A DNA stretch of 64,000 nucleotides, from NCBI GenBank assembly GCA_943354555.1, contig CALRCM010000001.1, positions 7,453-71,452 of the forward strand, in the 5' to 3' direction. How positions within the stretch are numbered: the stretch's first letter is position 1; every line of letters begins with the position of its first letter. The notes beneath the pieces are model-generated. The model did not search any database. It worked only from the letters and a program-made list of their open reading frames with translations, and was not told the DNA's origin. The position numbers and the translations under genes were made by a program. Of this stretch, positions 5,318-33,319 are shown in pieces. The stretch comes from Candidatus Peribacteria bacterium (GTDB taxonomy: Bacteria > Patescibacteriota > Gracilibacteria > Peribacterales > Peribacteraceae).

Positions 5318-5327
5318 ATTGCATGGG

Positions 5328-8593: not shown

Positions 8594-8607
8594 TGTGCAT
8601 AGCGTGT

Positions 8608-8702: not shown

Positions 8703-8710
8703 ATTGTTTT

Positions 8711-11214: not shown

Positions 11215-11217
11215 GTG

Positions 11218-13567: not shown

Positions 13568-13603
13568 CTATGCAGAATTGGTAATAGGGGACCCACCCAC
13601 CTA

Positions 13604-16984: not shown

Positions 16985-18028
16985 CTAGGGTCGATACATC
17001 GTCGCAATTGCATCCATATTTTCCCGCAGCCATCCATGGAGTGATGCCAGTCCTTCCTTTAGCTGCATCTTCGGTTCCCACCCCAATTCCTTTTTTGCCT
17101 TGGAATTGTCACTGACGAAAATAGGCTGATCACCGGGACGGACATCCGCGCGCGTCCATATCGGTTTCAATCCCAATGCTTTTTCCATATGTTCCATAAA
17201 TTCGATCAGCGAGAGCGTGTTACCTGATCCTCCGCCGATGTTATAAATCCGGCCATTGCATGTATCGATTTTTTCAATAGCGTTTTCATACAAACGTACA
17301 AGATCATCCACATACAGCAGGTCTCGCACTTGTTTGCCGTTTCCATAAATAGAGAGGGGACGACCAAGCATGCTCGCGATCAAAAACCATGCCACCCAGC
17401 CCTGATCCTCCACGCCAAGCTGATGCGGTCCGTAGATGCATGATTGCCGGAATACTACTGTCGGGATGCCGTACATGCGTGCGTAGTCACGGACGTACTG
17501 ATCCGCGGCGCCCTTGCTGCAGCCGTATGGGGAATGGAAATCGAGTGGCTCTTCTTCTGTCGCCCCCTTTCTGCCGTCGGCAAACACGTATCGATTTTCC
17601 TCCTCGCGCACGGGAATACTTTCGAGTCCGCCGTACACTTTGTTGGTGGAAGCGAAGAGTACGATGGGGGGATTCTTTACAGATCGTGCCGCCTCAAGAA
17701 CATGGAGCGTACCGAGGAGGTTCTGCTCGCAGTCCATCATCGGTTCTTTGACGGATGTTGTGACGGCGACCTGACCTGCAAGATGCAGGATGGCATCATG
17801 TGTTTCGGCCCCCTGTTCCAATGCTTTCTGATCCTTACAGACGTCGCCGCGGATGATCGTAACGGCATCAGGCCATTTCTCTTTTAAGAATGCAGCGTTG
17901 ATATCCACCCCTCTCCTTGAGAAATTATCGAACACGGTCACCTCCCAGCCACGGCTGGCAAAATGGTTAGCAGCGTTCACCCCAATGAATCCTACCCCCC
18001 CTGTAATGAAGATGCGTTTAGCGGGCAT
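16985..18028 (-). CDS. NAD-dependent epimerase/dehydratase (CDP-paratose 2-epimerase-like SDR)
   Basis: MPAKRIFITGGVGFIGVNAANHF...; catalytic YGCSKGAADQY. Start set at ATG 18028; the track ORF runs to 18172. Confidence 0.75.
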   Translation of the reverse strand: MPAKRIFITGGVGFIGVNAANHFASRGWEVTVFDNFSRRGVDINAAFLKEKWPDAVTIIRGDVCKDQKALEQGAETHDAILHLAGQVAVTTSVKEPMMDCEQNLLGTLHVLEAARSVKNPPIVLFASTNKVYGGLESIPVREEENRYVFADGRKGATEEEPLDFHSPYGCSKGAADQYVRDYARMYGIPTVVFRQSCIYGPHQLGVEDQGWVAWFLIASMLGRPLSIYGNGKQVRDLLYVDDLVRLYENAIEKIDTCNGRIYNIGGGSGNTLSLIEFMEHMEKALGLKPIWTRADVRPGDQPIFVSDNSKAKKELGWEPKMQLKEGLASLHGWLRENMDAIATMYRP

Positions 18029-19145
18029 GAAGGATACGATCGTAAAGAGAAATGTATTGTTTGGCAATGTTGCGCCAATCATGCAATGCGGCGTAGCTCT
18101 TTCCGCTTCGGCCCATGGCAACGGCCTGCTCCGGATGATCGAGCAAGCGGATGACTGCATCGGCAACGGCATCTATGTCTCCATCCGGTACCACGAAGCC
18201 GGTTTCTCCATCTTTTACGGCATCGCGTATGCCTCCGGCGTCCGTTGCCACGATCGGCTTTCCGCAGGCACTCGCCTCAAGATAGACGATGCCGAAACCT
18301 TCGAATTTCAGTCCGACAACTTTCGGCGTATGCACATAGATATCAGCGGATTGAAAGTATGCAACAAGTTCATCGCCACTTTTGCGGCCGACAAAATCCA
18401 CCGAGTCTCCGATTCCCAGTTCCTTTGTTAGCGTCTCCAGATCAGGACGCCCGTTGCCGTCACCGACAATGACATACATCGCATTGGGATGATTCTTGAG
18501 TATTTGCGGCATGGCTTTGAGGACAAGATCATGGCCTTTTCTGCCCCACAAACCTCCAACAGTCAGGAGAATTTTTTTCCCGTGATAGCGGTTCCGGATG
18601 GATGCCGTGTCCACGCTTTTTTGGAACCGATCGAAGTGGACGCCATTATGGATGATATCGATCGGGTAAGAACACTTTGCGAGCTCCAGAATTTTTTCTT
18701 TGGTATACACGCTTGGTACAGCGATCGCCTCTGCTTTCTTGTAACAATGTTTCAGCAACCAGCGCTCGGGGAAATACGTCAGTGGCCGGACGCCATGTGT
18801 TCCCTGTGCGCCTGTCATGAAGGGCTTGTCATATTGCCTCGCGGAAAGCAGAGCGGGTACGCAGTAGGGAAAGGCAAACAGGTCATGTACAAGATCACAA
18901 TCTGAAACATCTACAGTGCGGAAGTATTTCAAGCCTTCCGGCTGATATATACGGAAAACATATTCTGGCAGTACGCATCGTGTTTCACAGGGCAGGGAAG
19001 ATTGCGCAATGAATGTTTTCTGGGAACGCGGCAGAAAGAGCGTGCAGTCCACTGAGCATTGCTTTAGTGCATGCACCAGCTCCCAAGTGATATTGCCGTA
19101 GCCATCTTTTGGTTCGGCCGTAGAGGAGAAGAGTGCGATGCGCAT
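18018..19145 (-). CDS. Family 4 (GT-B, group 1) glycosyltransferase
   Basis: MRIALFSS...; LLTVGGLWGRKGHD...EGFGIVYLEASACGKPIVATDAGGIRDAV. The track start 19172 is a TTG; ATG at 19145. Confidence 0.8.
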   Translation of the reverse strand: MRIALFSSTAEPKDGYGNITWELVHALKQCSVDCTLFLPRSQKTFIAQSSLPCETRCVLPEYVFRIYQPEGLKYFRTVDVSDCDLVHDLFAFPYCVPALLSARQYDKPFMTGAQGTHGVRPLTYFPERWLLKHCYKKAEAIAVPSVYTKEKILELAKCSYPIDIIHNGVHFDRFQKSVDTASIRNRYHGKKILLTVGGLWGRKGHDLVLKAMPQILKNHPNAMYVIVGDGNGRPDLETLTKELGIGDSVDFVGRKSGDELVAYFQSADIYVHTPKVVGLKFEGFGIVYLEASACGKPIVATDAGGIRDAVKDGETGFVVPDGDIDAVADAVIRLLDHPEQAVAMGRSGKSYAALHDWRNIAKQYISLYDRILHAR

Positions 19146-19156
19146 ATCGATTTTCA

Positions 19157-20221
19157 TTATGATGCAATGCAATCTTCCCGTAGTGGCGTACCTCTTTCAA
19201 TCCGTTTTGCCGCTTTCTTGCCGATGATGTGATCGTATTCCTTCGGCGGAAGTCCGTTGGCTGGGCGGATGGAACGAATATTCTTGGTAGAGAATGTCTC
19301 GCCTTCTGCGATATCTTCCACAACGAAGAGAGAGCGGCGGAACTGCATACTCTTTTTCTCTTCCGGAGACGGGCCATAGTGTGCGGAGCCCAGGATCACG
19401 GGATCTAGTGACGCTGTTTCTATGTCTTTCTCTGCAGCGCGGATGGCATCAACCATTGAGCGAAATGCCTGAGGATCCAACGAGAAGGCGCTGTCCGGTC
19501 CACATTCATGCTGATCGAGCTTGAAGTGCTTTTCGATGATGCATGCACCGAGGCGGACTGCTGTGACCGCTGCCGCATTGTCCAGTGTGTGATCCGAAAG
19601 ACCGACGGGCACATGAAAATCTTTCATCATTGCGGGGATCGTATTCAGATTCATGGATTCTGGCTGCGCGGGATATGCACTCGTACACTTGAGTAAAGCC
19701 ACTTCACAGCCCTTCGCCGCTTCCAACGCATCCATAATCTCTTCGCGACTTGCCATGCCCGTAGAGATGATAATAGGCTTTCCAGTCGCAGCGACTTTGC
19801 GGATCAGCGACGTATCGACGATCTCAAACGAAGCGATTTTGTATGCGGGGACATCCATAGTTTCCAAAAAATCCACCGCTGTCGGATCAAACGGTGAGGA
19901 AAAGAGATCCATGCCAAGGTCATTGGCGATTTTCTTCAGTTTCGGCTGCCACTTCCATGGAGTGAAGGCCTCGCCGTACAGTGTATAAAGTGTTTTTCCT
20001 TCCCATAATGTTCCTTTCCCAACACGGAACTCTTCACGATCACAATCAATGGTGATGGTGTCGGGCGTGTAGGTCTGGAGTTTCACCGCATCGGCTCCGG
20101 CATTTTTCATGGCACGGATGATCTCCACGGCTTTTTCAAAACTCTGACCGTGGTTCGCCGACATCTCCGCGATGATGTAGACGGGATTGCCGGATCCGAT
20201 GGTGTGTCTGCCGATCTTCAC
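19157..20221 (-). CDS. pseI: Pseudaminic acid synthase
   Basis: Collinear with C. jejuni PseI as I recall it: IIAEMSANHGQSFEKAVEIIRAMKNAGADAVKLQTYTPDTITID, KIASFE, GLSDHT, IIEKHF, plus C-terminal SAF domain (RRSLFVVEDIAEGETFSTKNIRSIRP). GTG start overlaps the upstream stop (GTGA). Confidence 0.85.
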   Translation of the reverse strand: MKIGRHTIGSGNPVYIIAEMSANHGQSFEKAVEIIRAMKNAGADAVKLQTYTPDTITIDCDREEFRVGKGTLWEGKTLYTLYGEAFTPWKWQPKLKKIANDLGMDLFSSPFDPTAVDFLETMDVPAYKIASFEIVDTSLIRKVAATGKPIIISTGMASREEIMDALEAAKGCEVALLKCTSAYPAQPESMNLNTIPAMMKDFHVPVGLSDHTLDNAAAVTAVRLGACIIEKHFKLDQHECGPDSAFSLDPQAFRSMVDAIRAAEKDIETASLDPVILGSAHYGPSPEEKKSMQFRRSLFVVEDIAEGETFSTKNIRSIRPANGLPPKEYDHIIGKKAAKRIERGTPLREDCIAS

Positions 20222-21708
20222 ACTGGCATGGTAGCTCTTGCGATCGTCATATGCAGAGCGGATTGGCCGTGAATTTCCGATAATCCGCGCTCCTGAAATC
20301 CCGCCTTTTGGAATGCTTTTATGGAAGCCAAATTATCAGGCTTGATGAATGCATCAACTTCTTTGGCATCGCTGGTCCTGAATAATCGATTGCATCCCTG
20401 CTTGATCAGAGCTGTTCCATAGCCTTTTCCGCGACATGCCTTATCCAGATTGATGGAGATAGTCGCGCGGTTTCCCTCCAGAGCGAAGCGCACCAGCCCT
20501 ACAGGAAGATCATCTGTATCCATGGCGATAGAGAGCCGGTCATTTGGGGATGTGAGTTTTTTGGTAAACCACTTCCGGTGATCATCTTCTATAATGGAGG
20601 CACTAGAAAAGGATGCAGAGCGGGCTTCCGGATCATTTGCCCATCCAAAGATCTGCATGCAGTCATCGGTCATAGCATCACGCAGCCACAAAGGGTCTTC
20701 GGAAAGCTTCTGGCAAACACGCAGGGCGCCGTATCCATCTACGAAAGACTGACATTGTTTGGACATTATTGATCTTTTATCGGGATCAGCCCTAAGGCTT
20801 TGGACTGCCTGCCGTATTGCTTCCGGAGTGATGTCTGCATGCCATCCCAAATTTACTGCTCCACCCGATCGCTCCCACTGCTGCGCGACGTCCCGCTGGT
20901 TCTCTGCAAGCACAAGAAGAATCATCGGCACTCCCATACACGCGAGTTCGTACGTTGTTGTTCCTCCGGCGGCGAGTGCAATATCTGCTTCCTCCATCAG
21001 CTGCGGCATATTTGTGGCATTGCTTACGCATGTGAATCCTGCGCTTTTTGCCGCCTTCTCCAGTACTGCTTTCTCAGGATGTGCACCTCCAATCACCACC
21101 GTGACATGTCGCAGATGCATTTCAGCGAGAGCCTCAATGATTTTTCTGGTCACATTGGATGGATCTGCTCCTCCGAGGGTGACAAGAATATTGTCAGCAT
21201 TACTCCCAGAGGCTTTCTTTGCTTTATGTTTTGAGAATTCTTCGCGCAGTAGAGCGAATCGCGGCCCTGCAAGCAATTGTGCGGATAGAGGTTGTGCACC
21301 GGCGGATCTTTCTGCTCCGATATTCTGATTTAGAATGACATCTGCAACTCCATACTCTGCAGGAAAATCATGAAGCGCCAGTAGAGGAATTCCTTTTCCC
21401 TGCAGTGCTTTGCGGTACATGTCATCAAAAGCATATCCATCAAGAGCGATCCACAGAGCTTCATATGCTTTTGCATAGGCAAGAGTTTCCTGAGCATCAT
21501 CCGGTCCGTATGCGCTTTTTTTAAGCGATTGATACGCATATCCATCATGGATGATTTTTTCTCTGAGAAAATCCGGCATTTCTGAAGCGACGAAACAAAC
21601 GCTCCCTCCACTTGCTTTGATGGCATGTGCGAGCGCCAGACAGCGCATGACATGGCCTGTGCCAATACTTGGGCTTGCGTCTGCGCGGATGAGAAGACGA
21701 AGCGGCAT
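20218..21708 (-). CDS. pseG-pseH: Bifunctional PseG (UDP-2,4-diacetamido-2,4,6-trideoxy-beta-L-altropyranose hydrolase) fused to a PseH-type GNAT N-acetyltransferase
   Basis: N-terminus LLIRADASPSIGTGHVMRCLALAHAI (PseG signature) with a GT-B-like body. C-terminal ~170 aa are GNAT (IFGWANDPEARSASF...ACRGKGYGTALI). Confidence 0.75.
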   Translation of the reverse strand: MPLRLLIRADASPSIGTGHVMRCLALAHAIKASGGSVCFVASEMPDFLREKIIHDGYAYQSLKKSAYGPDDAQETLAYAKAYEALWIALDGYAFDDMYRKALQGKGIPLLALHDFPAEYGVADVILNQNIGAERSAGAQPLSAQLLAGPRFALLREEFSKHKAKKASGSNADNILVTLGGADPSNVTRKIIEALAEMHLRHVTVVIGGAHPEKAVLEKAAKSAGFTCVSNATNMPQLMEEADIALAAGGTTTYELACMGVPMILLVLAENQRDVAQQWERSGGAVNLGWHADITPEAIRQAVQSLRADPDKRSIMSKQCQSFVDGYGALRVCQKLSEDPLWLRDAMTDDCMQIFGWANDPEARSASFSSASIIEDDHRKWFTKKLTSPNDRLSIAMDTDDLPVGLVRFALEGNRATISINLDKACRGKGYGTALIKQGCNRLFRTSDAKEVDAFIKPDNLASIKAFQKAGFQERGLSEIHGQSALHMTIARATMPV

Positions 21709-23534
21709 CAGGAAGGTGATTGTGGATTCCCGCCCCGACGGAAGAGAACTTTGTAATCGTCGTATGGCAGATAGGGCTTGGCGCAGTCGGGGATATCTTC
21801 CGTAAATCGTTCCTTGATCAGCGGAAGGATCGGCTTGATAAGTTCCCGTGTATAGAATTCCTCTTCATTGAAGACCATGACTTCTGTACGTTCGAGAATA
21901 TTTTCCACGGTCTGCTTTCCATACGCGTGATCGGGCGGGAAATATGCGGGCATCGCCAGTCCCATCAATGGTCCCCAAGGGGAATGCTTAGAGAAGGATA
22001 GGCTGACTGTACTCACATTAATATTAGCTCTCTTCACTCTGCACGCATCAAGCAGGGCATCAAGACGTTCGATGTCTTTCCGAGTATGCGCATAGTTCGA
22101 GAGGAGCAAACCAGCATGTCCCTCCACGTGTTTTGGATTGGGATAATAAAAGATGCCTGCTAGAAGTACTGTGCCTGCGAGTATGGTAAGCAGCATCGGC
22201 GATAGGCGATTGTTTATGCTTTCCCTCATTCCAAGAAGGAGCAGTGTCCCGTAGACCGGAATGGCGAAAACGAAGAAGTTCGAGTGATAGGCAACTCCGG
22301 CGGCAATAGCGAGAGCCGCCAGGTAGAGAATCGCCAGCGTATACACGCTACGCCGCAGAAGCGTCCGGTCGATGCGCCAGAGTCCGAAGCTGCCAGCCAG
22401 AGCTACGATGATCCATGCATATTCTTTTACCGAGAATGATTGATTGATGATGGAGAGGACAGGGGCATCTGGATACATGCCCTTCAATGTGAGAATCAGG
22501 AACACAAGGTTCATCGCGACCATCGTCGGAAACATCATCACCCATGAGCAGATAACCTTCTTCCATGATTGGCGTTTACGGGAGAGAAACAGCGGTGTGC
22601 TCATCCAGAGCAGGATGATCATCCATCCGGTGAATCTGCTGGACGGGTAATACTTAACAATATCCGCGTAGATGCGTCCTGTGCGCATCCGACGTAGCCA
22701 TAGAGGGCTATATTCCGTGACTTCCTGTACGCGGTGAATGAGCATATTGGGCAGATGCACTCCGAAGTACGGCCAGAGCAACCCCAAAGACCACAGCACG
22801 ATGCATCCGGTAATCGCGGCGAGACCGAGAGGCAGGACGAAGGTTCGTAGCAAGCCTTTCCATGATGGCGTGAGAAGCAGGGCGATAGCGAAGTTTGCAA
22901 TCAGAAACGGCTCCTTCATGCCTATGGAGAGGAGCATTGCGACGCTTGCCACCGCAATACTTGTTCGTGAACGTAACTCTGTTCGCAGCAACACGAAGGC
23001 ATAGACCATGCTGAAGAAAAACCCGAATCCCTCCGGTTGCAGTGCTCCGCTACGTTCTTCTGTATAGAACATGAGCACTGCACTGCCGATGAACCCAATT
23101 CCTGCAATAAGCCATGTTTGCGGGAATGTCCACTTTTTCTCAGAGGCCGTGAATGCGTAGGAGGCAATCAGAATCGGAAAGCAAAGAAAGAGTGCCACTT
23201 GTAGCCATGTCGCAAACATCTCTCCGTTCGTAAGCCACAGTGAGACCGCCATCAGGAGATAAATTCCCGGCGGCTTGGCATCGAAAATATCCGTGTATGG
23301 TTTAAGTCCGTTGAGTATTGCCCGTCCCACCATGACATACGATCCCGCATCAGAGTGCATGGGACCTTCAAGCTCCAGTGCCAGCGTATGGACCATGTCC
23401 AACAGCACTTTACCAAGGACGAGGACAACGACGATTGCAACAAGTGCGATAAGAATACGACGGACGTTATGCATGTGCGCTACGATATGCCCTTCGCCGA
23501 CAGCTGCCAACTTGCTAGATGTACTGTCCTGCAT
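21708..23534 (-). CDS. Polytopic GT-C-like membrane glycosyltransferase (ArnT/PMT-like) or polymerase
   Basis: More than 12 TM segments; first-loop motif YTDIFDAKPPGIYLL typical of GT-C enzymes. Alternative start ATG 23474. Confidence 0.5.
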   Translation of the reverse strand: MQDSTSSKLAAVGEGHIVAHMHNVRRILIALVAIVVVLVLGKVLLDMVHTLALELEGPMHSDAGSYVMVGRAILNGLKPYTDIFDAKPPGIYLLMAVSLWLTNGEMFATWLQVALFLCFPILIASYAFTASEKKWTFPQTWLIAGIGFIGSAVLMFYTEERSGALQPEGFGFFFSMVYAFVLLRTELRSRTSIAVASVAMLLSIGMKEPFLIANFAIALLLTPSWKGLLRTFVLPLGLAAITGCIVLWSLGLLWPYFGVHLPNMLIHRVQEVTEYSPLWLRRMRTGRIYADIVKYYPSSRFTGWMIILLWMSTPLFLSRKRQSWKKVICSWVMMFPTMVAMNLVFLILTLKGMYPDAPVLSIINQSFSVKEYAWIIVALAGSFGLWRIDRTLLRRSVYTLAILYLAALAIAAGVAYHSNFFVFAIPVYGTLLLLGMRESINNRLSPMLLTILAGTVLLAGIFYYPNPKHVEGHAGLLLSNYAHTRKDIERLDALLDACRVKRANINVSTVSLSFSKHSPWGPLMGLAMPAYFPPDHAYGKQTVENILERTEVMVFNEEEFYTRELIKPILPLIKERFTEDIPDCAKPYLPYDDYKVLFRRGGNPQSPS

Positions 23535-24252
23535 CCACTTTGATGATCTGCCCCGTCATATGCCGTGAAGATTCGCTGCAGAGGAACGCGACGACTGGTG
23601 CGATGTCCTGTGGCGTTCCCAGTCGCTTGATCACACACTCACTCAGAACGAGATCGCGCATGGCTTGAGGGGTCTCTTTCTGTGACGGAGTTTCGATGAA
23701 GCCCGGTGCAACGAGGTTCACATTCACATTGTACTCACCAAGTTCGATTGCTGCGGCCTTTATAAGGCCCGTGAGACCTGCTTTTGCTGCGTTGTAACTT
23801 GCGGTATTTCTTCGTGCACGTAGCCCGTTAATCGAACCAATCGCCACGATCTTGCCGCTCTTCTGCTTCAGAAAATGCGGCGCGGCGGCATGAATGTAAT
23901 TGAATGTGCCTTTGAGGCAGACATCCACAACCTCGTCCCAGTCTTTCTCAGAGAGTTCCCAAAGGAGTCCTATGCGTGCAAATCCCGCATTGCAGACCAG
24001 TGCGTCGATTCCCCCCAGCGTTTTCTGTACTTCATCGATAACAGAATGTGCCAAGGAAAAATCTGCCGCGTCAGCCTGAATCATCAACGCTTTGCGCTTT
24101 ATCCCCTCGATCTCTTTCACCAGTTTTTTTGCGGCGTCCGCATCTTCCACGTACGTGAATGCGACATCGAAGCCGTCGCGGGCAAGCGTGCGGACGATCT
24201 CCGCGCCGAGTCCGCGTGATCCTCCGGTGACGAGAGCGACTCCATGTGCCAT
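23515..24252 (-). CDS. Short-chain dehydrogenase/reductase (FabG-like)
   Basis: VALVTGGSRGLGAEI, NAG, YNAAK motifs. Confidence 0.8.
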   Translation of the reverse strand: MAHGVALVTGGSRGLGAEIVRTLARDGFDVAFTYVEDADAAKKLVKEIEGIKRKALMIQADAADFSLAHSVIDEVQKTLGGIDALVCNAGFARIGLLWELSEKDWDEVVDVCLKGTFNYIHAAAPHFLKQKSGKIVAIGSINGLRARRNTASYNAAKAGLTGLIKAAAIELGEYNVNVNLVAPGFIETPSQKETPQAMRDLVLSECVIKRLGTPQDIAPVVAFLCSESSRHMTGQIIKVDAGQYI

Positions 24253-24285
24253 GAGGTGATCCTAACACATGCAGTTTGGCTGCAA

Positions 24286-25275: not shown

Positions 25276-25276
25276 G

Positions 25277-26470
25277 TTATCGGGCGTAAAAAGCACAGAC
25301 CTTGCGTACCGCTTCTATAACGTCATCAGCATCACTGTCGCTCATTGCTGCAAAGATCGGCAGGGAAAGCATCCGTTCGTACGCCGCTTCGGCCATGGGA
25401 CACATGCCTGGTTTCGTCCCGAATCGTTTTTTGTAGAACGGATGCAGGTGTGCGGGAACATAGTGCACATTGACGCCGATGTTTTCTGCCGAGAGCGCTT
25501 CGAAGATTTCCTTGCGCCCCACGCGCAGCCTTTCAGGAACAATCTGCACGACGTACAAGTGATATGCATGTACGACATTTTTGCGGACTTTCAGGGTGTG
25601 AACACCTGGGAGCATCGCAAGGGCTGTGTCATATTTTTTTGCAATGGCTCTCCGTCGCTCATTCCATTGAAGAACCTTTTTCAGCTGACTCATGGCAAGT
25701 GCCGATTGGATGTCTGTAAGTCGGTAGTTGTAGCCCAGTTCCTGCATTTCATAAAACCATGAACGCGCTTCGTGGCGTTCCCGGTGTTCGCTTGTGATGC
25801 CGTGATTCCGGAATCGCCGCATGCGCTTTGCATAGTCATGATTATCCGTGGTGATCATTCCACCTTCGCCTGTGGTCATGGGTTTTACAGGATGAAAACT
25901 GAAGGTGGAAAGATCTGCGAGAGACCCTACCGAATGATCGTTATCCTTTCCTCCGAGTGCATGACACGCATCTGCCACGAGTGCGAGTTTGTGCTTCTGT
26001 GCGATGGCGGATAGTGCTGCGTAATCCGCAGGCTGCCCTGCGTAATCTACTGCGATGATTGCCTTGGTATTTTTCGTGATCGCCTTTTCCACGCATACCG
26101 GATCAATTAGCAGCGTCGCAGGGTCGCTATCCACGAATACCGGTGTACCACCCTGAAAGACAACAGCATTTGCCGTCGCGGCAAACGTCATCGTTGGAAC
26201 AATGACTTCGTCCCCTTTGCCGATATCCAGAGCGAACATGGCCGCATGAAGTGCAGCCGTGCCACTATTTACTGCAACTGCTTCATGTACACCGCAGAAA
26301 TCCGCGAATGCGGTCTCGAATTCCTTTATCTTGGGCCCCGTCGTGAGCCAATCCGAACGAAGTACCTCCGTTACCGCTGCGATATCCTCCTCGCTGACCG
26401 ACTGGCGCCCGTAGGGGAGCAGAGTCTTTCGCACGGGTGTGCCGCCGTCGATGGCGAGAGTGGCGGGCAT
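25277..26470 (-). CDS. pseC: UDP-4-amino-4,6-dideoxy-N-acetyl-beta-L-altrosamine transaminase (DegT/DnrJ/EryC1 family)
   Basis: LPYGRQSVSEEDIAAVTEVLRSDWLTTGPKIKEFE N-terminus typical of PseC; PLP-Lys region FSFHPVKPMTTGEGG; adjacent to pseB. Confidence 0.8.
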   Translation of the reverse strand: MPATLAIDGGTPVRKTLLPYGRQSVSEEDIAAVTEVLRSDWLTTGPKIKEFETAFADFCGVHEAVAVNSGTAALHAAMFALDIGKGDEVIVPTMTFAATANAVVFQGGTPVFVDSDPATLLIDPVCVEKAITKNTKAIIAVDYAGQPADYAALSAIAQKHKLALVADACHALGGKDNDHSVGSLADLSTFSFHPVKPMTTGEGGMITTDNHDYAKRMRRFRNHGITSEHRERHEARSWFYEMQELGYNYRLTDIQSALAMSQLKKVLQWNERRRAIAKKYDTALAMLPGVHTLKVRKNVVHAYHLYVVQIVPERLRVGRKEIFEALSAENIGVNVHYVPAHLHPFYKKRFGTKPGMCPMAEAAYERMLSLPIFAAMSDSDADDVIEAVRKVCAFYAR

Positions 26471-26480
26471 GGGATTTCTT

Positions 26481-27446
26481 TCAGAGCATTTTTTTCAGCT
26501 GCTCTACAGTGAGCCAGTCTGTATTCGTATCACTGGCGTAGCGGTAACCTTCTTTGGTATTGGGCTTCGGCCATTCTGTCTGCGAGGTCCACGTCGGATA
26601 CTCCGGAAGGATGACAAAAGAATCTTTGAGTTCAACTGCGTGGCGCGATTCGTCTTCTGAAAGAAGGACTTCGTGAAGCTTTTCCCCGGCACGGATGCCG
26701 ACGATCTTCCGCGCACAGCCCGGCGCTACTGCATCGGCAAGGTCGGTTATACGCATGCTCGGAATCTTCGGCACGAAAACCTCTCCGCCGCCCATGTCCG
26801 CGATTGCGCGCATCACGAGCCGTACGCCCTGTTCCAACGTGATCCAAAATCGTGTCATACGATCATCGGTGATGGTGATAGTTCCCGTCTCGCGTTGCTT
26901 GAGAAACACGGGAATAACGCTTCCGCGGCTTCCCACAACATTGCCGTACCGGACGCAGGAAAATTGCGTTGGGGCATTGCCACTATAAGCATTGCCCTGT
27001 GTGAAGATTTTTTCGGCAACGAGCTTCGTCGCGCCGTAGAGATTCACGGGATTGACCGCTTTGTCGGTGCTCAATGCGACGACTTTCTTCACTCCTGCAT
27101 CGAGCGCTGCCTCCACCACATTACGTGCTCCACCGATATTCGTTTCCACAGCTTCCAGCGGATTGTATTCACACGCAGTGACATGCTTCAGCGCTGCGGC
27201 ATGGATGACGACATCCACTCCTGCCATAGCACGACGAAGACGGTTCTGATCACGAACATCCCCGATGAAGTATCGCATGCAGGGTGCATCAAATCCCTCT
27301 GCGTGCATGTCATGTTGCTTGAGCTCGTCGCGGCTGAAGATCGCGAGACGTTTGGGTTTGCATTCCTTTACTACAATTTCTGCAAACTTCTTGCCGAACG
27401 ACCCTGTTCCGCCGGTAACGAGGATAGAGGCATTAGAGAGATCCAT
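26481..27446 (-). CDS. pseB: UDP-N-acetylglucosamine 4,6-dehydratase (inverting)
   Basis: Long collinear matches to PseB: ILVTGGTGSFGK, SRDELKQ, PCMRYFIGDVRD, VIHAAALKHV, ALSTDKAVNPVNLYGATK, RYGNVVGSRGSVIP, MTRFWI, IGIRAGEKLHE. Confidence 0.9.
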   Translation of the reverse strand: MDLSNASILVTGGTGSFGKKFAEIVVKECKPKRLAIFSRDELKQHDMHAEGFDAPCMRYFIGDVRDQNRLRRAMAGVDVVIHAAALKHVTACEYNPLEAVETNIGGARNVVEAALDAGVKKVVALSTDKAVNPVNLYGATKLVAEKIFTQGNAYSGNAPTQFSCVRYGNVVGSRGSVIPVFLKQRETGTITITDDRMTRFWITLEQGVRLVMRAIADMGGGEVFVPKIPSMRITDLADAVAPGCARKIVGIRAGEKLHEVLLSEDESRHAVELKDSFVILPEYPTWTSQTEWPKPNTKEGYRYASDTNTDWLTVEQLKKML

Positions 27447-27495
27447 TGATTGGCATCCTAACACAGTTCCCATGGTCTTTGGCTATCGTTCAGCC

Positions 27496-28572
27496 TTATT
27501 TTTTGTGCTTTGCCAGCGCAAGAATGTGTGTGGAAGCGTCGGGATCGGCGCAGAAAAGGTCGACTGGCCCTCCTTCGTTCCTTGTCGGATTCTCCAGTGC
27601 ATGCTTCAGCTCTGCCGCATTCATACATACTGGTACTAGCCCCAAACGGACTGCGGTGCACTTCTCAGGATGGAGTGCATGTGGTTGGTAGGAGATTGGA
27701 TTTCTCCCGAGAATCGCGGCTTCAAGTAGAGTTTTTGAGCACATGCCCACAATGCGGTTGCTGTGCCAGAGCAGGGGGACGAGTTCTGCAGCTCCGGAAA
27801 GCACATGCCACTCCACATTCTCGCCGCACGCAGGCGGGGCTTTTGTACTTTCTGCCGGGTGGAGCTTTTCCACCACGCGCACGGGAGCACCGATCATCGT
27901 GAGAATGTGTGCAAGTTCCTCACGCACGATGTCCTCATGAAATCCGAGGAAGGAGCCATGTGTACCTTTTTTCCCTGTGCTTTCTCCATATGCGGCCTTT
28001 AATTTTTCAGAGAGGAAAAGAACAGAAGGGCGATCGGTAGTATTCCGTAGCACTTCGGGTACGGCGGGAGGGTGGCTCCGGAGCTCGTCGGCTTTTTTGG
28101 ATAGTTCCGCAAGTGCAGGACTGCCGGTGATATGCATGCAGGACTTCGGGATTCCTTCTTCTTCTCCGAGCTTCAGGGAAAGCGCGTCCTGTACGCAGAT
28201 CACATCGGGAAGATAGGTTCCGATTGCACCTTGTTCATCGCGAAACCGCAGAGCGTAGTTGTACCACTCGTCGAGAAGGGTAATGCTCCGTATGCCGCAA
28301 GTGCGCGCCGCTGCCGTCAGGTATCGTTCGCCCGAGATCACTCCGGTTGTGCCGAGAATGACTGTATCCGGATGTGTGTCATTGAGCAGAGATGTTGCAT
28401 CTTCCAGAGATGAAATCATGAGAACTTCCGCGGATAGTTCTGCTGCTTTAAAAAGAGGAGCGGTGACCGATGAAGCGAGAAGACGGCAGGGAATTTTCTG
28501 AAAAAGTGCTTCGCGTACGACAGGAATCAATTCTCTTGCTCCTCCCGCTTCGCTCGCACAAAAAAGTATCAT
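27496..28572 (-). CDS. Hypothetical protein (possible Rossmann-like/GT-B fold), first gene downstream of pseB
   Basis: 358 aa. Coding-like composition and tight operon spacing. No motif I can name. Confidence 0.4.
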   Translation of the reverse strand: MILFCASEAGGARELIPVVREALFQKIPCRLLASSVTAPLFKAAELSAEVLMISSLEDATSLLNDTHPDTVILGTTGVISGERYLTAAARTCGIRSITLLDEWYNYALRFRDEQGAIGTYLPDVICVQDALSLKLGEEEGIPKSCMHITGSPALAELSKKADELRSHPPAVPEVLRNTTDRPSVLFLSEKLKAAYGESTGKKGTHGSFLGFHEDIVREELAHILTMIGAPVRVVEKLHPAESTKAPPACGENVEWHVLSGAAELVPLLWHSNRIVGMCSKTLLEAAILGRNPISYQPHALHPEKCTAVRLGLVPVCMNAAELKHALENPTRNEGGPVDLFCADPDASTHILALAKHKK

Positions 28573-28590
28573 GAGATGGAAAGGGGAAAA

Positions 28591-29880
28591 TCAGGATGTG
28601 CATGCCACAACAACCTTATCGATTGCTGTAATAATATCTGCAACATCATCCATAGTTTGAGGATGACAGAGATGCATGTTCAGAAGCATCTCCTTTGCAT
28701 ATAAGCGCTCGGCAGTAGGGCAGATTCCGGTTTCGTAGCGTGCAGTGGAATCTTTGTTTTCTGGAGCCGTCCAAGGGTAGCCCTTTGTGAATGCGGTGCG
28801 CGTTTTGAAGAGGGGGAGTTCGTAGAGAGGTTTCACATAACTTTCCACAAACGGAATTCCTTCAGCTTTGAGCATTGCCGTAAATGCGCTGCGTGACGTT
28901 CCCCCGCAGTGCTCTGTAAAGTAGCGCATAGGACAGACGTAATATGTTGCCTGAGTTTCCGGCTGTGCGTGCATGGGTACGAGGCAACGATGTCTGGCGA
29001 CTCCTGCGTGCAGCGCTTCAACCATGGCAATGCGCGCAGCATTTAATTGTTTCAGTTTCTTCAGCTGTTCCTGCGCAACGGCTGCAAGCGGTTCTGTAAG
29101 CCGGTAATTGAAGCCGATAATATTTTCGATATGCGCATACTGCGCTGCCTCCACCACTGCCTCTCCGTGGTTGCGGATCATCTGCAGTCGCAAAGAAAGA
29201 TTTTTATCATTGGTGATGCAGAGGCCACCCTCTCCGCATTGAATAGTCTTGTGGACATTGAAACTGAAAACGCCGATATCGCCGAAGGTGCCTACCCATT
29301 GATGACCGATCGTTGCGCCCCACGCCTGTGCGCAGTCCTCAATTACTTTCAGATTGTGCTTTTTCGCGATGGCCATGATCGCGTTCATATTTGCAGGAAT
29401 GCCGAACTGATGGACGACGATGATTGCCTTGGTTCGCTTGGTTACATTCTTTTCTATAGATACAGGATCGAGGCATCCTGTGGTTTCTTCGATGTCAGCA
29501 AAGACGGGGATCGCTCCGTAGATCAGCGGTGCAACCGCGCATGCACTCATGGTGTAGGGCGACACGATCACTTCATCGCCATAGCCGAGACCCAGTGCAC
29601 CGACTGCAGCATAGAGACCCGAAGTGGCGCTATTCACTACTACAACATGCTTTGCTCCGGTCATGTCCACTGCCATTTTTTCCAGTGCCTGTACTTCCGG
29701 TCCGCCGAGAAAGTTATAGGGAGGAGCCGGTTTGTATGCCCCCTGAAAGAGAGAGAGATGTCCGCTCTCCATGGCGCGGAGCATCGCACGCTTCTCTTCT
29801 TCGCCGAGCGCGTTACTTTCCTGCCACGGTTTTGTGCGCACGGGAGTACCGCCGTTGATAGCCAGAGGTTCTTTGCTCAT
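28591..29880 (-). CDS. DegT/DnrJ/EryC1/StrS-family PLP aminotransferase (long form)
   Basis: PLAINGGTPVR N-terminus; FSFNVHKTIQCGEGG PLP-lysine region; 4-bp overlap with the downstream oxidoreductase. Confidence 0.8.
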   Translation of the reverse strand: MSKEPLAINGGTPVRTKPWQESNALGEEEKRAMLRAMESGHLSLFQGAYKPAPPYNFLGGPEVQALEKMAVDMTGAKHVVVVNSATSGLYAAVGALGLGYGDEVIVSPYTMSACAVAPLIYGAIPVFADIEETTGCLDPVSIEKNVTKRTKAIIVVHQFGIPANMNAIMAIAKKHNLKVIEDCAQAWGATIGHQWVGTFGDIGVFSFNVHKTIQCGEGGLCITNDKNLSLRLQMIRNHGEAVVEAAQYAHIENIIGFNYRLTEPLAAVAQEQLKKLKQLNAARIAMVEALHAGVARHRCLVPMHAQPETQATYYVCPMRYFTEHCGGTSRSAFTAMLKAEGIPFVESYVKPLYELPLFKTRTAFTKGYPWTAPENKDSTARYETGICPTAERLYAKEMLLNMHLCHPQTMDDVADIITAIDKVVVACTS

Positions 29881-30818
29881 AGGGACGCGAGGCGCTTTGC
29901 CTCAAAGAGTATGTCCATTGTACCGCGCGCTTCCGCAAATCCTGCGATATCGAGGAGTTTCGTATCGTTTTTACTTAGCAGGGCCGCACTTATGGAATAG
30001 AGCCTGCTAAGCGCTTTTTCGATGGGCTCAGCTTTTTTCGTCTCACTCTGAAAGAGCGCGGGAGCGTAGGTATCCTGCTCTGCCCGGTCGATGGCGATAT
30101 TTTCCCATTGGATACGGATGCGTCCTTTGGAAAATCGTAACTCCGCCTCGAAGATTTTATACGGATGTTCCGGAATTCCCTCCAGAATAATTTCTGCTTC
30201 AGGGAATTGCACGGATTTCAGCTCTGCCCGTAGCAGCGGATCCTGCTCATAGCGATCCACGCTCTGTTTTTTTGCAGAGACGCATTGTAGTTCCCCGAGA
30301 AGCATCCGCAGCGTATCGACTGCATGAACGCCGACGTGGAACCACCCGGCGTAGTAGTGCCAGAGACCTCCTGTGAATGTCCCGAGTTCTCCGCTTTCGA
30401 TCAATGTTCGAAGCTCCATGAATCCCGCATTGAAGCGCCGGCTGTGCTCCACGACAATCATTGTTTTTACCGTAGGGATAGATGCTTCCAGATCACGGAG
30501 TTCTTCCTCCGACATGCACAAGGGCTTTTCCACGATGATCAATCTCGGTGCATGCGTATGTGAGGCAACATCCTTAATCATGCGTGCGTGCGTTTCATCC
30601 GGCGTTGCGATGGTGACGATGTCGGGAGATTCATGTTCCAGTAATTTCTCCCACGTAGCGTACTCTTCGCACTTCCATTCTTTGCCGAAAGCTGCAAGGC
30701 GCACCGGATCGATATCGCAGGCGCCAGCGAGCGTGATGTCCGGGCTTGCTGCGAGTGCCGCTGCATGTGATGTAGAAAAGGATCCTGTGCCGATAATGGC
30801 TGCGCGAAGGGATTTCAT
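29877..30818 (-). CDS. Gfo/Idh/MocA-family oxidoreductase
   Basis: MKSLRAAIIGTGSFSTSHAAAL; EKP motif (IIVEKPL). ATGA overlap with the upstream gene. Confidence 0.75.
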   Translation of the reverse strand: MKSLRAAIIGTGSFSTSHAAALAASPDITLAGACDIDPVRLAAFGKEWKCEEYATWEKLLEHESPDIVTIATPDETHARMIKDVASHTHAPRLIIVEKPLCMSEEELRDLEASIPTVKTMIVVEHSRRFNAGFMELRTLIESGELGTFTGGLWHYYAGWFHVGVHAVDTLRMLLGELQCVSAKKQSVDRYEQDPLLRAELKSVQFPEAEIILEGIPEHPYKIFEAELRFSKGRIRIQWENIAIDRAEQDTYAPALFQSETKKAEPIEKALSRLYSISAALLSKNDTKLLDIAGFAEARGTMDILFEAKRLASL

Positions 30819-31567
30819 GTGGTTGGTTTCTGGTATTGCTTCCATCGTCGGTGGATATCTTTATTGAGAGCGGTGACTTCCGGATGTGCATCGAGAAATG
30901 CGATGATTTCCCCGAGGGAAAAATCCGTACGCGGCGCGAAATGTCTCAGGATCTCTTCAAAAACGCCGAAGTCTTCTTCCGTGTCGACATCGAGATGGAT
31001 GTCCGTACGCTTCAGGGGCCCTTCATACGAAAGATGCTTTTGGCGGTAGAGCTTCGGATGCTGCCTGAGATAGAGCGTTCCATGTTCGCGGATCGCCGGA
31101 TCAGTATTACGTTCTGCTGCATCGCGGAAAGAGGCCACAGAAAATGCTTCGCTATACATTCCTGAAGGGTACACAGGAGTGACGTCGTTGCCGACCCATT
31201 CGAAGTTTCCTTCGCGGTATGCAGTGATGCATTCATCGATCAATGCAGGGTCGATGAGCGGGCTGTCGCCATAGATCTCTACACCGGTTTCCGCCTGCAC
31301 ACTCTCCAATGCACCGAGCATGCGTCCCATCACATCCTCTTCCGAACCACGAAAGCACGGCATGCCGGTCGTCTTGCAGTACTGCGCAATCACATCGTTC
31401 TCCGTTGCAGTGGGGATAGCCACCACCACACCATCAAGGTGTTTTGCCTGCCTCACTCTTCCGAGGAGGTGGCCCAGTAAAGGTGAGCCGAGAGCTTCGC
31501 GCATCATTTTACCAGGGAGCCTTTCGGATCCCATACGCACACAAACGACGGCTACTACTTTCCCCAT
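30815..31567 (-). CDS. Cytidylyltransferase, SpsF/COG1861-like (CMP-sugar-acid synthetase homolog; second PseF candidate)
   Basis: MGKVVAVVCVRMGSERLPGKMMREALGSPLL matches the CTP_transf_3/SpsF N-terminus. Start set at ATG 31567. Confidence 0.7.
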   Translation of the reverse strand: MGKVVAVVCVRMGSERLPGKMMREALGSPLLGHLLGRVRQAKHLDGVVVAIPTATENDVIAQYCKTTGMPCFRGSEEDVMGRMLGALESVQAETGVEIYGDSPLIDPALIDECITAYREGNFEWVGNDVTPVYPSGMYSEAFSVASFRDAAERNTDPAIREHGTLYLRQHPKLYRQKHLSYEGPLKRTDIHLDVDTEEDFGVFEEILRHFAPRTDFSLGEIIAFLDAHPEVTALNKDIHRRWKQYQKPTT

Positions 31568-31627
31568 GTGGCTATAGTGGAACCGTGGCGTTCTCCGCGC
31601 AATACACGCCACACATGTATTTTGCTT

Positions 31628-32269
31628 TTACTCGTACTGCCACAGCGACATTTTTCGTACGGGGTCGCGGAAGAGTTGTCGCATCCCAAGCTCTCCCAGT
31701 ACGCCTTGCTGCATATCATTCGAATAGGCGATCACATGTTTATATGTTCGCAGTGCGTCACGGTTGTTATGTATAAAGAGCCGCATCACTTCCGCCCCGA
31801 AGGGGTTGAACATGAAGATCAGGCTTTGGGGCATTGCGCCGAGTTCGTACGAAGCCGCATCGGCATGCAGAAACTCAATGGGATATTTTGCGAATCCTTT
31901 CTTCAAAAATACATTCGCCTGATCCACGAGTGATGCATCGAACTCCAGTCCGATAATGCGCCTGAACCGATTGGTCGTGGCTGCATAGAAACAAGGCTTG
32001 CCTTTCCCCGAGCCGATATCGATGAATATTTCCGGTCGGATTCCCAGAGCAGCACACTTTTGTATAAGGATGCGGATACTCCTGCACCACGCGGCGTGAT
32101 ATGCGGTGGCATCTTTGCGGTATGCCGAATCTGTTTTGAGAAATTCCCGGGGTACGACACCCGTGGTATCGATGCCGTGACGTATATCAAACCAGCGGTC
32201 TTCCAGCGCACACATGCGCCGCAGCAATGCCTCTTTCATAGTCGTAAACATTCGCATAAACAGTATCAC
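31628..32269 (-). CDS. Class I SAM-dependent methyltransferase
   Basis: Motif I FIDIGSGKGKPCFYAA; GTGA start/stop overlap with the upstream gene (alternative ATG 32257). Confidence 0.65.
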   Translation of the reverse strand: MILFMRMFTTMKEALLRRMCALEDRWFDIRHGIDTTGVVPREFLKTDSAYRKDATAYHAAWCRSIRILIQKCAALGIRPEIFIDIGSGKGKPCFYAATTNRFRRIIGLEFDASLVDQANVFLKKGFAKYPIEFLHADAASYELGAMPQSLIFMFNPFGAEVMRLFIHNNRDALRTYKHVIAYSNDMQQGVLGELGMRQLFRDPVRKMSLWQYE

Positions 32270-33246
32270 ACTCCTGCTGCCGGCTTTTCCCAGCGCACGA
32301 CGTAGTACGGTGCCGGAACGGCATTGAAACTTGTTTTGTAATCGCCGCGTGCAGGGGAATTAATGCCAACAACATCAAAGAGTGTGCAGCGGTGCTTTTT
32401 GCACCGCATCACCGCTTCTGTAAGGAGCATGCTGCCGCAGGCATCTTTGCGGAACGCAGGATCATTGGCGCCGAAGAGGTAATATCCGCACCGGTCGTCA
32501 AAGAGATAGAGGACAGCGCTGGCAACTTCACCTTTGGCGTTTCTGCTCAGGAGAATTTCTCCAAATCCTTCTTCCACCGCGCATTGCGCAATCGAGCGTA
32601 CGAGATCACTTGCTTCCTCGGGGCGCTCCGCATTCTGGCGTTCGAAAGTGCGCTGGTGCAGATCGTCCAAAAGCGCGACATCTTTCGATTCTTCTATGAT
32701 CCATCCTTTTGCAGTTGCACTACGAGTCTCCTGCCTCCTTGTTGTACGGACCGTACTGAGAAAATCGTCGGCCTCCCCGATACCACTGAGGTTGATGAGC
32801 CCCGTATATCCCACGCTGATCTGGAACATTCCCTTGTCTCTCTCGTGATAGTGAAACCACTGGAAGCTGCGGATATCAGGAAAGTTCCAGTGCAGGCAGA
32901 ATTCCATGTTTTCACAGGTCTTCTCCAGCTCTGTGAGAAGAAATTCCGCGAGCTGCAACTGTTTGCCGACGCGCGTGTGGGGCCTGAGTGCATCCAAAGT
33001 ACCGTTAAAGAGCACACCCTGATACATCGTAAACGGCCGCGGAGAGCTGCGGAACTTTCCATTCTTTTCAGGGAATAGGATTGCTCCGAGCATCGGTTCG
33101 CCATCACTCTGCACAAAAACACATTCATATTCTTCGCCGCAGGCTTCGATGAACGAAGATATGCAGAAGATGTTTCTCTGGGGGGATGAACGGACAAATG
33201 CATCCCACGCCTGTTTGTCCCTACAGCGGACAAGGGAGAGCTCCAT
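32266..33246 (-). CDS. FemAB-like / GNAT-fold (Acetyltransf_6-type) acyl- or aminoacyl-transferase
   Basis: MELSLVRCRDKQAWDAFV...; C-terminal YYLFGANDPAFRKDACGSMLL...FDVVGINSPARGDYKTSF, typical of FemX/FemAB-related proteins. Start set at ATG 33246; the track ORF runs to 33525. Confidence 0.65.
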   Translation of the reverse strand: MELSLVRCRDKQAWDAFVRSSPQRNIFCISSFIEACGEEYECVFVQSDGEPMLGAILFPEKNGKFRSSPRPFTMYQGVLFNGTLDALRPHTRVGKQLQLAEFLLTELEKTCENMEFCLHWNFPDIRSFQWFHYHERDKGMFQISVGYTGLINLSGIGEADDFLSTVRTTRRQETRSATAKGWIIEESKDVALLDDLHQRTFERQNAERPEEASDLVRSIAQCAVEEGFGEILLSRNAKGEVASAVLYLFDDRCGYYLFGANDPAFRKDACGSMLLTEAVMRCKKHRCTLFDVVGINSPARGDYKTSFNAVPAPYYVVRWEKPAAGV

Positions 33247-33319
33247 ATGCCCAAACTCTACCACACGAATCAGGGAGATAGGGGATGCATTACCTCTCTT
33301 CCTTTGCGATACTGCTGAC

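Follow-up and report, generated by a model that had tools for sequence, protein, structure and literature searches.

In a Candidatus Peribacteria genome, 15 genes arranged head to tail on the minus strand constitute a predicted single-direction operon whose products probably make CMP (cytidine monophosphate)-activated pseudaminic acid (Pse) and then tailor and transfer the sugar, a reading drawn from protein families and from analogy with known pathways. The operon lies at positions 16985-33246 of the window, that is, the whole 64,000-nucleotide (nt) stretch that was analysed (GenBank assembly GCA_943354555.1, contig CALRCM010000001.1, forward-strand positions 7,453 to 71,452). The host is a member of the candidate phyla radiation (CPR), and its genome is 1.16 Mb in size and 93% complete. 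Joined to the Pse genes is a conserved four-gene cassette that includes an unnamed protein family with the fold of NeuC; this cassette and its joining to a Pse core appear to be undescribed. Pse clusters with tailoring genes, and the fusion of PseG to a GNAT domain, are already known.

Nonulosonic acids such as Pse cap bacterial surface glycans and control how a cell is recognized by hosts, phages and neighbours. A life attached to other cells is assumed for CPR bacteria, whose surface chemistry is barely known. Pse genes in CPR bacteria are sporadic but not unique: in a sample of 401 genomes from the phylum, a NeuB-family gene is present in 54 and a PseI scoring over the model cut-off in 15. 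The genome paper of Ca. Peribacter riflensis gives a single sentence to ‘sialic acid' genes (PMC4736985), and beyond that mention the literature searched yielded no paper that connects CPR bacteria to pseudaminic or nonulosonic acids.

The pseudaminic acid core and its activation

Equivalog calls were based on NCBIfam models with curated cut-offs, and domain calls on Pfam thresholds. The Pse pathway proposed in the initial annotation of this DNA is borne out by four enzymes, each of which exceeds its equivalog cut-off and lies at the coordinates first assigned to it (genes are designated g15, the first, to g01, the last; all are on the minus strand): (i) g09 (26481-27446) is PseB, the inverting UDP-N-acetylglucosamine (UDP-GlcNAc) 4,6-dehydratase (TIGR03589, 491.5 bits; cut-off 407.75), with 235 bits for the competing FnlA model, 62 bits for LegB and a YGATK motif; (ii) g08 (25277-26470) is the PseC aminotransferase (TIGR03588, 457.5 bits; cut-off 423.5), scoring 239 bits with the LegC model and carrying SFHPVK as its pyridoxal phosphate (PLP) lysine motif; (iii) g04 (20218-21708) combines PseG (residues 4-277; TIGR03590, 222.3 bits; cut-off 153.55) with a GNAT domain (residues 340-477) that is presumed to be PseH; (iv) g03 (19157-20221) is PseI, pseudaminic acid synthase, with NeuB and SAF domains (TIGR03586, 463.2 bits; cut-off 340.25). 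The NeuB/LegI model gives PseI 277 bits (cut-off 399.65), 186 bits under its score with the PseI model. Furthermore, annotated pseI genes (comparators: plasmid-borne, Bacillus thuringiensis/mycoides, Azospirillum, Parabacteroides and Klebsiella) share 47-52% identity with PseI, as compared with 30-35% for neuB-type genes.

A check on the PseI assignment was provided by a maximum-likelihood tree of 34 NeuB-family proteins with support from the Shimodaira-Hasegawa-like approximate likelihood ratio test (SH-aLRT). PseI falls into a nine-member clade (100% SH-aLRT) together with three pseI references (B. thuringiensis, Azospirillum and Parabacteroides) and Peribacteria orthologs, apart from NeuB/LegI-type proteins; neuB references that adjoin neuC or legC are placed outside it. 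Placement in a Leg or Neu clade, named in the initial annotation as a refutation, is thereby excluded for PseI. As far as family membership goes, the Pse core can be regarded as secure.

The pathway had been described as complete, which holds for PseB, PseC, PseG and PseI; for PseH only a generic GNAT domain was found, and there is no equivalog PseF. The GNAT half of g04 scores 32-35 bits with the PseH model (TIGR03585; cut-off 93.1) and 57 bits with Acetyltransf_3, and is the sole PseH-like sequence in the genome. Its fusion to PseG already exists as a RefSeq product name (bifunctional) in Parabacteroides.

By the established Pse pathway, PseB would dehydrate and invert UDP-GlcNAc, PseC would transaminate C4, the GNAT half of the fusion would N-acetylate the product, the PseG half would remove UDP, and PseI would condense the resulting sugar with phosphoenolpyruvate to give Pse5Ac7Ac. 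UDP-GlcNAc itself comes from a divergent enzyme: the only GlmU-like open reading frame (ORF) in the genome (G000:C7:1144-2364; 434 aa) scores 57 plus 40 bits with the GlmU model (cut-off 367).

The activating enzyme is most likely g13 (30815-31567), an SpsF-type CTP_transf_3 cytidylyltransferase (PF02348, 91.6 bits) whose best match in the Protein Data Bank (PDB), 6oew, is a cytidylyltransferase. No protein of the genome reaches the cut-off of the PseF model (TIGR03584; 205.7), g13 itself scoring 21.7 bits. Homologs of g13, however, sit in true Pse clusters and in the position of PseF: in a related genus (genome G009), a six-gene minimal operon reads PseB-PseC-Gfo-CTP_transf_3-PseG/GNAT-PseI; in a flagellin-linked Azospirillum cluster the homolog directly follows pseI (34% identity); and in the seven-gene Pse operon of B. 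thuringiensis it is the fourth gene (20% identity, E 2e-14). On these grounds g13 is taken as the probable CMP-Pse synthetase, a non-orthologous substitute for PseF that would convert Pse5Ac7Ac into the CMP-sugar. The most PseF-like protein of the genome (10507-11214; 160 bits) is unlikely to be the cytidylyltransferase of the operon: in relatives it is always linked to a SAF-less NeuB, a 2-hydroxyacid dehydrogenase and a dehydrogenase fused to a CBS domain, and it travels with that module even where there are no Pse genes.

The canonical pathway (PseB/C/H/G/I/F) is that of Helicobacter and Campylobacter, with psaA-F in Acinetobacter and the seven-gene operon in B. thuringiensis. The window shares with it PseB, PseC, PseG and PseI at equivalog level, and differs in having no equivalog PseF or PseH, in the nine further genes interleaved with the core and in the 1.16-Mb CPR genome that hosts it. 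In layout, the Parabacteroides cluster, with the order pseB-pseC-GT2-pseF-pseG/GNAT-pseI (GT, glycosyltransferase), matches the minimal Peribacteria operon, B-C-x-cytidylyltransferase-G/H-I. Activation by an SpsF-type CTP_transf_3 enzyme seemingly occurs in the B. thuringiensis and Azospirillum clusters too.

Operon layout and the four-gene cassette

The head-to-tail arrangement of 15 minus-strand genes, noticed from the start, was confirmed both by the ORF listing (15 successive ORFs, 16985-33525) and by gene order in a relative. After start codons were set by the beginning of the alignment to the hidden Markov models (HMMs) and by homolog length, the block spans 16,262 nt (16985-33246). Distances between genes range from −31 to +60 nt, several junctions being start/stop overlaps of 1-4 nt; gaps of 0-50 nt or overlaps had been stated, which is essentially right, and alternative starts narrow both extremes. 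Starting g12 at ATG 30818 turns the −31 into a 4-nt ATGA overlap, and starting g13 at GTG 31612 reduces the gap of 60 nt to 15 nt. Both edges of the block are plus-strand genes: a divergent one starts at 33320, 73 nt from g15, and a convergent one ends at 16865, 119 nt from g01. A scan for promoter and terminator consensus sequences found nothing that exceeded shuffled expectation.

The closest homologs and loci are from metagenome-assembled genomes (MAGs) of Candidatus Peribacteria/Peribacteraceae. On one such contig, L028 (VGKY01000022), the genes and their order match from the FemAB-like gene to pseG at 55-93% amino-acid identity, and collinearity stops inside pseG, where the contig ends. 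Because L028 keeps this order, the gene array is real and conserved and not a chance pattern of ORFs.

Functions had been offered for 14 of the 15 genes. Two Gfo/Idh/MocA oxidoreductases, a short-chain dehydrogenase/reductase (SDR), a second DegT aminotransferase, the cytidylyltransferase, a FemAB-like protein, a family 4 glycosyltransferase (GT4) and an epimerase all pass Pfam thresholds. Two further assignments hold less firmly: the methyltransferase reaches only 23.2 bits with Methyltransf_25 (cut-off 27), and the GT-C membrane protein has no sequence-family match, its support coming from a fold search. The gene left without a name, g10 (27496-28572), encodes a 358-aa GT-B protein and belongs to the cassette.

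The cassette consists of g10, g13, g12 and g11. g12 (29877-30845; start probably ATG 30818) is the second Gfo/Idh/MocA oxidoreductase (Gfo2; PF01408, 70.8 bits), and g11 (28591-29880) the second DegT-family PLP aminotransferase (DegT2; PF01041, 281 bits), which stays under all NCBIfam equivalog cut-offs and keeps the PLP lysine motif SFNVHK. In a survey of 15 loci from GTDB species representatives and three metagenome contigs, g10 travels with homologs of g13 and g12 in every one of the 15 loci and on all three contigs, the g12 homolog adjoining those of g13 and g11 in all 15; a g11 homolog joins the other three wherever the contig is long enough, usually in the order g10-g13-g12-g11. Conservation is highest for DegT2: its copies in most loci outside Peribacteria are 54-61% identical to it, and those of L036, L040 and L042 41-44%. 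The cassette spans at least eight phyla, with a NeuB-family gene beside it wherever the flanking sequence suffices; its hosts are four Peribacteria, Planctomycetales, Thermodesulfobacteriota, several Rhodospirillales, Xanthobacteraceae, other Pseudomonadota, Dehalococcoidia and Acidobacteria, plus one short contig binned as Undinarchaeota. The latter (L034, CAZHTU010000143.1; 2.2 kb) carries g10-g13-g12, is assigned to Candidatus Undinarchaeota, a DPANN archaeon, and shares study SRP077602 with one Peribacteria MAG; it reflects either mis-binning or cross-domain transfer.

In hosts other than Peribacteria the cassette commonly lies behind genes for an iron-dependent alcohol dehydrogenase (Fe-ADH), a small (220-aa) GT2, a 400-aa DegT protein and a NeuB with a SAF domain (loci L017, L018, L033, L036, L037 and L038, around position 5000-10000 of each). 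The NeuBs of these loci reach neither the NeuB nor the PseI cut-off and form a separate clade (100% support), and the loci possibly represent a pathway to an undescribed ulosonic acid. In the lineage of the window (L028-L030) Pse genes accompany the cassette and a cassette-type NeuB is absent; on another Peribacteria contig (L031) it accompanies a non-Pse NeuB, with neither PseB nor PseC.

Searches of Pfam, NCBIfam and PDB sequences with g10 gave no significant match, and none of its 64 homologs is named. An AlphaFold2 model (built from 42 homologs; predicted local distance difference test score 94), Foldseek and profile comparison were used to place it. In the PDB, UDP-GlcNAc 2-epimerases take each of the first 42 places in the Foldseek ranking, the hydrolysing enzyme of Neisseria being one of them (best E 2.6e-13; TM-scores 0.58-0.67; 13-17% identity). 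In profile-profile alignment with hhalign, the g10 family matches NeuC (three annotated proteins) with 96% probability as against 18% for PseG, which rules out g10 as a PseG paralog. Against the PDB 2-epimerases the family profile is weak (E about 0.08), and of the family's 42 members seven touch Epimerase_2 weakly (best E 0.003), six DUF354 and two a polysialyltransferase model.

The catalytic carboxylates of NeuC are presumably the Asp in GDR, the Glu in HIHGGE and the Asp in DE. In the alignment of g10 with the NeuC profile, which at 17% identity is not firm, DE is kept (D101-E102), GDR is replaced by GTT and the HIHGGE segment is deleted; the g10 family has invariant residues of its own, namely D-E-W, H-P, E284 and S294. 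g10 shares the GT-B fold of the Epimerase_2 enzymes NeuC, SiaA and LegG, and departs from them in its low identity, in matching no Pfam model and in its DEW and HP motifs. The two distant members that match the polysialyltransferase model, together with these motifs, would fit a sialyltransferase-like protein, yet no GT-B sialyltransferase is among the top 50 fold matches of g10. Taken together, g10 is a remote homolog of NeuC and a candidate nucleotide-sugar hydrolase/epimerase or, alternatively, a candidate transferase using CMP-nonulosonate.

Candidate tailoring chemistry and alternative products

The initial annotation had suggested that Pse is modified or that another amino sugar is assembled with it, a reasonable proposal that the analysis sharpens by resolving four of the extra genes into the one conserved cassette. 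The tailoring chemistry set out below is proposed by analogy with characterized enzymes.

Pse has only two free hydroxyls, at C4 and C8. A Gfo/Idh/MocA enzyme would oxidize one of these secondary hydroxyls on the CMP-sugar, and the keto intermediate could then take either of two courses. By the first, Gfo1 and the SDR would re-reduce it to an epimer. Gfo1 (g07, 24286-25275; PF01408, PF22725 and PF02894) has among its PDB matches YjhC (6o15) and a Gfo/Idh/MocA oxidoreductase of Ruminococcus gnavus (6z3b/6z3c), both of which we take to be sialic-acid oxidoreductases, and a homolog (44% identity) lies within the minimal Pse operon of G009; ElaA (see below) was not named among these PDB matches. 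The SDR (g06, 23515-24252; adh_short_C2, 197 bits) is of the classical type, resembles FabG and acetoacetyl-CoA reductases, has a YNAAK motif and is separated from Gfo1 by a 33-nt gap.

A model for this course is found in the KL49 locus of Acinetobacter baumannii, where ElaB (a CTP-transferase), ElaA (Gfo/Idh/MocA) and ElaC (an SDR) convert the legionaminic acid (Leg) Leg5,7Ac2 into CMP-8-epi-Leg5,7Ac2 (PMC13656337). According to that 2026 structural paper, the conversion runs via a CMP-8-keto intermediate, C8 being oxidized and then re-reduced (PMC13656337). As in the ElaABC systems of A. baumannii KL49 and Vibrio vulnificus, the window has a Gfo/Idh/MocA, CTP-transferase and SDR trio in one operon with the synthase; Gfo1 adjoins the SDR and g13 abuts Gfo2, a likeness at the level of enzyme families only. 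It differs in that the sugar would be Pse and not Leg, and in that Gfo2 is paired with an aminotransferase and would aminate rather than epimerize.

By the second course, Gfo2 and DegT2 would transaminate the keto intermediate and add an amino group. The nearest named PDB relatives of DegT2 are KdnA, the transaminase of 8-amino-8-deoxy-Kdo (Kdo8N; Kdo, 3-deoxy-D-manno-oct-2-ulosonic acid), and scyllo-inosose aminotransferases; KdnA (5k8b, E 2e-47) is its second-best solved relative, and the best match is 8gyh, a protein whose identity was not found in a literature search. KdnA and the inosose aminotransferases act on keto-sugars that are not linked to a nucleoside diphosphate (NDP) at the reacting end. 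The simplest reading is that Gfo2 and DegT2 would oxidize a free hydroxyl of the nonulosonate, or of its CMP form, and then transaminate it. The KdnB/KdnA route to Kdo8N in Shewanella likewise oxidizes a hydroxyl of an ulosonic acid and then transaminates it with a DegT-family enzyme; there the oxidase is an Fe-ADH, a type that accompanies the cassette in other phyla, whereas here it would be a Gfo/Idh/MocA enzyme acting on a nine-carbon, probably CMP-linked substrate.

The new amine could in turn be decorated, and g15 and g14, which are found only in those Peribacteria versions that join the cassette to Pse genes, are the natural candidates. g15, the first gene (32266-33246), is a FemAB/Acetyltransf_6-like acyl- or aminoacyl-transferase of GNAT fold (PF13480, 53.4 bits, cut-off 22; PF02388, 28.7 bits, cut-off 24) that matched no NCBIfam model; its homologs in L028-L030 keep its neighbours. 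g14 (31628-32257), the small putative S-adenosylmethionine-dependent methyltransferase mentioned above, is kept beside g15 in the same three loci at 55-58% identity. g15 could acylate the added amino group, and g14 could modify it.

A bolder reading, with less than even odds, is that the cassette is an undescribed, phylum-spanning nonulosonate amination block that would couple CMP activation, oxidation of a side-chain or ring hydroxyl (most plausibly at C8) and transamination, and that its product here would be a 5,7,8-triamino derivative of Pse, N-acylated by the FemAB-like enzyme. An 8-amino-8-deoxy nonulosonic acid of manno configuration, substituted with 3-hydroxybutyryl, is known from the O-polysaccharide of Tenacibaculum (Flexibacter) maritimum (PMC3210612). 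Because this sugar is known, an 8-amino product has chemical precedent. A single genome-collection scan for g10 returned no match in Flavobacteriia, which argues weakly against a link between the cassette and Tenacibaculum. To our knowledge, no gene has been assigned to the 8-amination of the T. maritimum sugar. Were the proposal true, the cassette would account for how 8-amino-8-deoxy nonulosonic acids, that of the T. maritimum O-antigen for one, are made, and would place 8-amino nonulosonic acids on the surfaces of CPR bacteria. With its distribution from Acidobacteria to Planctomycetes, the cassette offers a testable route to extra-aminated nonulosonic acids.

Several observations weigh against the overall reading of the operon, Pse synthesis followed by tailoring and transfer. 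As a NeuC homolog, g10 would be redundant beside PseG in a pure Pse pathway, and in the alignment, which is not firm, it does not have the acidic positions that we take to be catalytic in NeuC. PseH and PseF stay below equivalog level in the whole genome. The SDR is equally compatible with making a 3-hydroxyacyl donor, and the GT-C call for g05 is weak (E 7e-3 or worse; TM about 0.3). Beyond Peribacteria the cassette is associated with a NeuB clade of its own, and PseB is absent. Finally, the sequence is present in DNA runs alone, from a lake-water metagenome.

Given this association beyond Peribacteria, the cassette is not specific to Pse and could make a separate sugar here. There is a modest chance of two products, the Pse genes making CMP-Pse5Ac7Ac and the cassette, perhaps with g15 and g14, another activated amino sugar or ulosonic acid; in this reading g10 would release and epimerize an NDP-hexosamine to feed a different synthase, such as the SAF-less NeuB (11218-12186). 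The kinship of g10 to NeuC fits such a division, as do the separate NeuB clade, Fe-ADH, small GT2 and different DegT that accompany the cassette in other phyla, with no PseB or PseG, its association with a non-Pse NeuB and neither PseB nor PseC in L031, and the presence in the window of a further NeuB and a further cytidylyltransferase along with the two KpsC/KpsS-like transferases. However, the SAF-less NeuB module occurs with its own cytidylyltransferase in genomes that have no cassette (G003 and G005) and is therefore independent of it; in this lineage the cassette has PseI as its only NeuB partner; g13 is the leading candidate for the PseF role; and the acidic motifs of NeuC are not kept in g10.

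It is improbable that the product is a plain N-acyl Pse, for which the SDR would make (R)-3-hydroxybutyryl-CoA or its acyl carrier protein (ACP) equivalent and the FemAB/GNAT-like protein or the fused GNAT domain would load the acyl group onto N5 or N7 (Pse5Ac7RHb-type), with the Gfo and DegT proteins serving another sugar. The best models for the SDR are indeed 3-oxoacyl-ACP and acetoacetyl-CoA reductases (199-226 bits; FabG models 208-226 bits), but it scores below the cut-offs of all FabG and PhaB models. Copies of the SDR at 70-80% identity come directly after pseC in L020, L029 and L030, where Gfo1 is lacking, and after Gfo1 in L028; the SDR of the window likewise adjoins Gfo1, in the manner of the ElaA/ElaC pair. 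Nonulosonic acids with 3-hydroxybutyryl groups are known (PMC3210612), yet a plain N-acyl Pse would not account for the fixed linkage of Gfo2 and DegT2 to a cytidylyltransferase in different phyla.

Synthesis of legionaminic acid, neuraminic acid or bacillosamine is ruled out for practical purposes: the DegT, SDR and NeuB families are common to all these pathways and same-genus relatives have NeuB/LegI-type genes at the equivalent place, but the HMM margins (PseB 491 versus LegB 62, PseC 457 versus LegC 239 and PseI 463 versus NeuB 277 bits), a PseG, not NeuC or LegG, over its cut-off and the tree, in which PseI groups with pseI and apart from neuB in NeuC or LegC contexts, all speak for Pse.

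Glycosyltransferases and the surrounding glycan island

A tailored CMP-Pse would be built into a surface glycan and exported by the GT4, both KpsC/KpsS-like flanks and the GT-C-like protein. The last of these, g05 (21708-23534; start possibly ATG 23474), is a polytopic membrane protein of 608 aa that gave no match in Pfam, NCBIfam or PDB sequence searches and has 13 detectable homologs only. Its AlphaFold2 model (predicted local distance difference test score 80) has high-probability Foldseek matches to GT-C proteins only, namely DPY19, PglB and EmbA/B (0.91-0.97) and AftA, with E values of at least 7e-3, and its first external loop, after the first transmembrane segment, holds an invariant motif, D62...K87-P-P-G90 (D62 plus KPPG). 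From this model g05 is likely a GT-C transferase. It bears no similarity to the PMT_2-like membrane protein at 3671-5317.

The two KpsC/KpsS-like (Capsule_synth) flanks, both on the plus strand, are divergent from the operon start (33320-34753; PF05159, 35.7 bits) and convergent with its end (15399-16865; PF05159, 49.0 bits; cut-off 20 for both). They are 480-aa paralogs with 33% identity. The former is kept beside g15 in L028-L030, and the latter is present in G003, G005 and L029-L031; Kps-like homologs are nearer where the type of nonulosonate is the same (73% in L028 versus 44-46% in G003 and G005). A PDB sequence search with the Kps-like protein gave no significant match. The PF05159 family uses donors that are CMP-activated ulosonic acids, and by this family membership the flanks are the best candidates for CMP-ulosonate transferases, one per synthase module. 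They differ from the beta-Kdo transferases KpsC and KpsS in that only about 100 residues match the model, in that their donor would be a nonulosonate and not Kdo, and in their host, which has no outer membrane or Kps-type capsule export. Two minus-strand ORFs rich in Arg, Cys and His (16263-16715, 150 aa; 33869-34675, 268 aa) are antisense shadows of KpsC/KpsS-like genes and not genes; their seeming homologs in relatives fall on KpsC/KpsS-like genes.

The second synthase belongs to an ulosonic-acid module on the minus strand (8711-15307) that comprises a nucleotide-sugar dehydrogenase fused to CBS, a 370-aa unknown protein, the SAF-less NeuB, the PseF-like cytidylyltransferase, a 2-hydroxyacid dehydrogenase and a methyltransferase, and is kept in same-genus genomes of either Pse or Leg type. 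The SAF-less NeuB (11218-12186) has a very long branch in the NeuB-family tree. The rest of the window encodes an MsbA/PglK-like ABC transporter, a further GT4, a GT2-GtrA protein and several nucleotide-sugar enzymes.

The glycan island to which the operon belongs varies between species: close relatives keep the backbone and swap Pse for Leg/Neu-type genes. The backbone includes the GT4 (g02, 18018-19157; Glycos_transf_1, 159.6 bits) and the last gene, g01 (16985-18028), an extended-SDR NDP-sugar epimerase/dehydratase (PF16363, 164 bits; PF01370, 154 bits) that is under all equivalog cut-offs and whose Rossmann motif starts nine residues past ATG 18028. Both are 55-83% identical (GT4 65-78%) in same-genus genomes, whatever nonulosonate genes are present. 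Among the seven genomes of the genus, three have an equivalog PseI and three others NeuB/LegI-type genes at the corresponding place. Such a swap at the same site is a pattern typical of surface structures under diversifying selection.

Comparison of the region of g05 (21708-23534) with L015 and L016 shows a mosaic of identities: in G006, of the same genus, PseI, the GT4 and the epimerase are 78-83% identical to those of the window and the adjoining PseG-GNAT only 36%, and a recombination breakpoint at the pseI/pseG junction is suggested by these sequences. In L020 (Ca. Peribacteria RIFCSPLOWO2_02_FULL_55_36), a transposase of the rve family (11151-12209) lies between the g10 homolog and pseB, and a HisH/HisF-like amidotransferase pair lies ahead of pseG, which together are further evidence that the island has been reshuffled. 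A 48.5-kb contig of a same-genus genome (G005:C1; L022-L024) has two g05 paralogs and five or six matches to the NeuB family, of which one contains an interrupting TAG codon.

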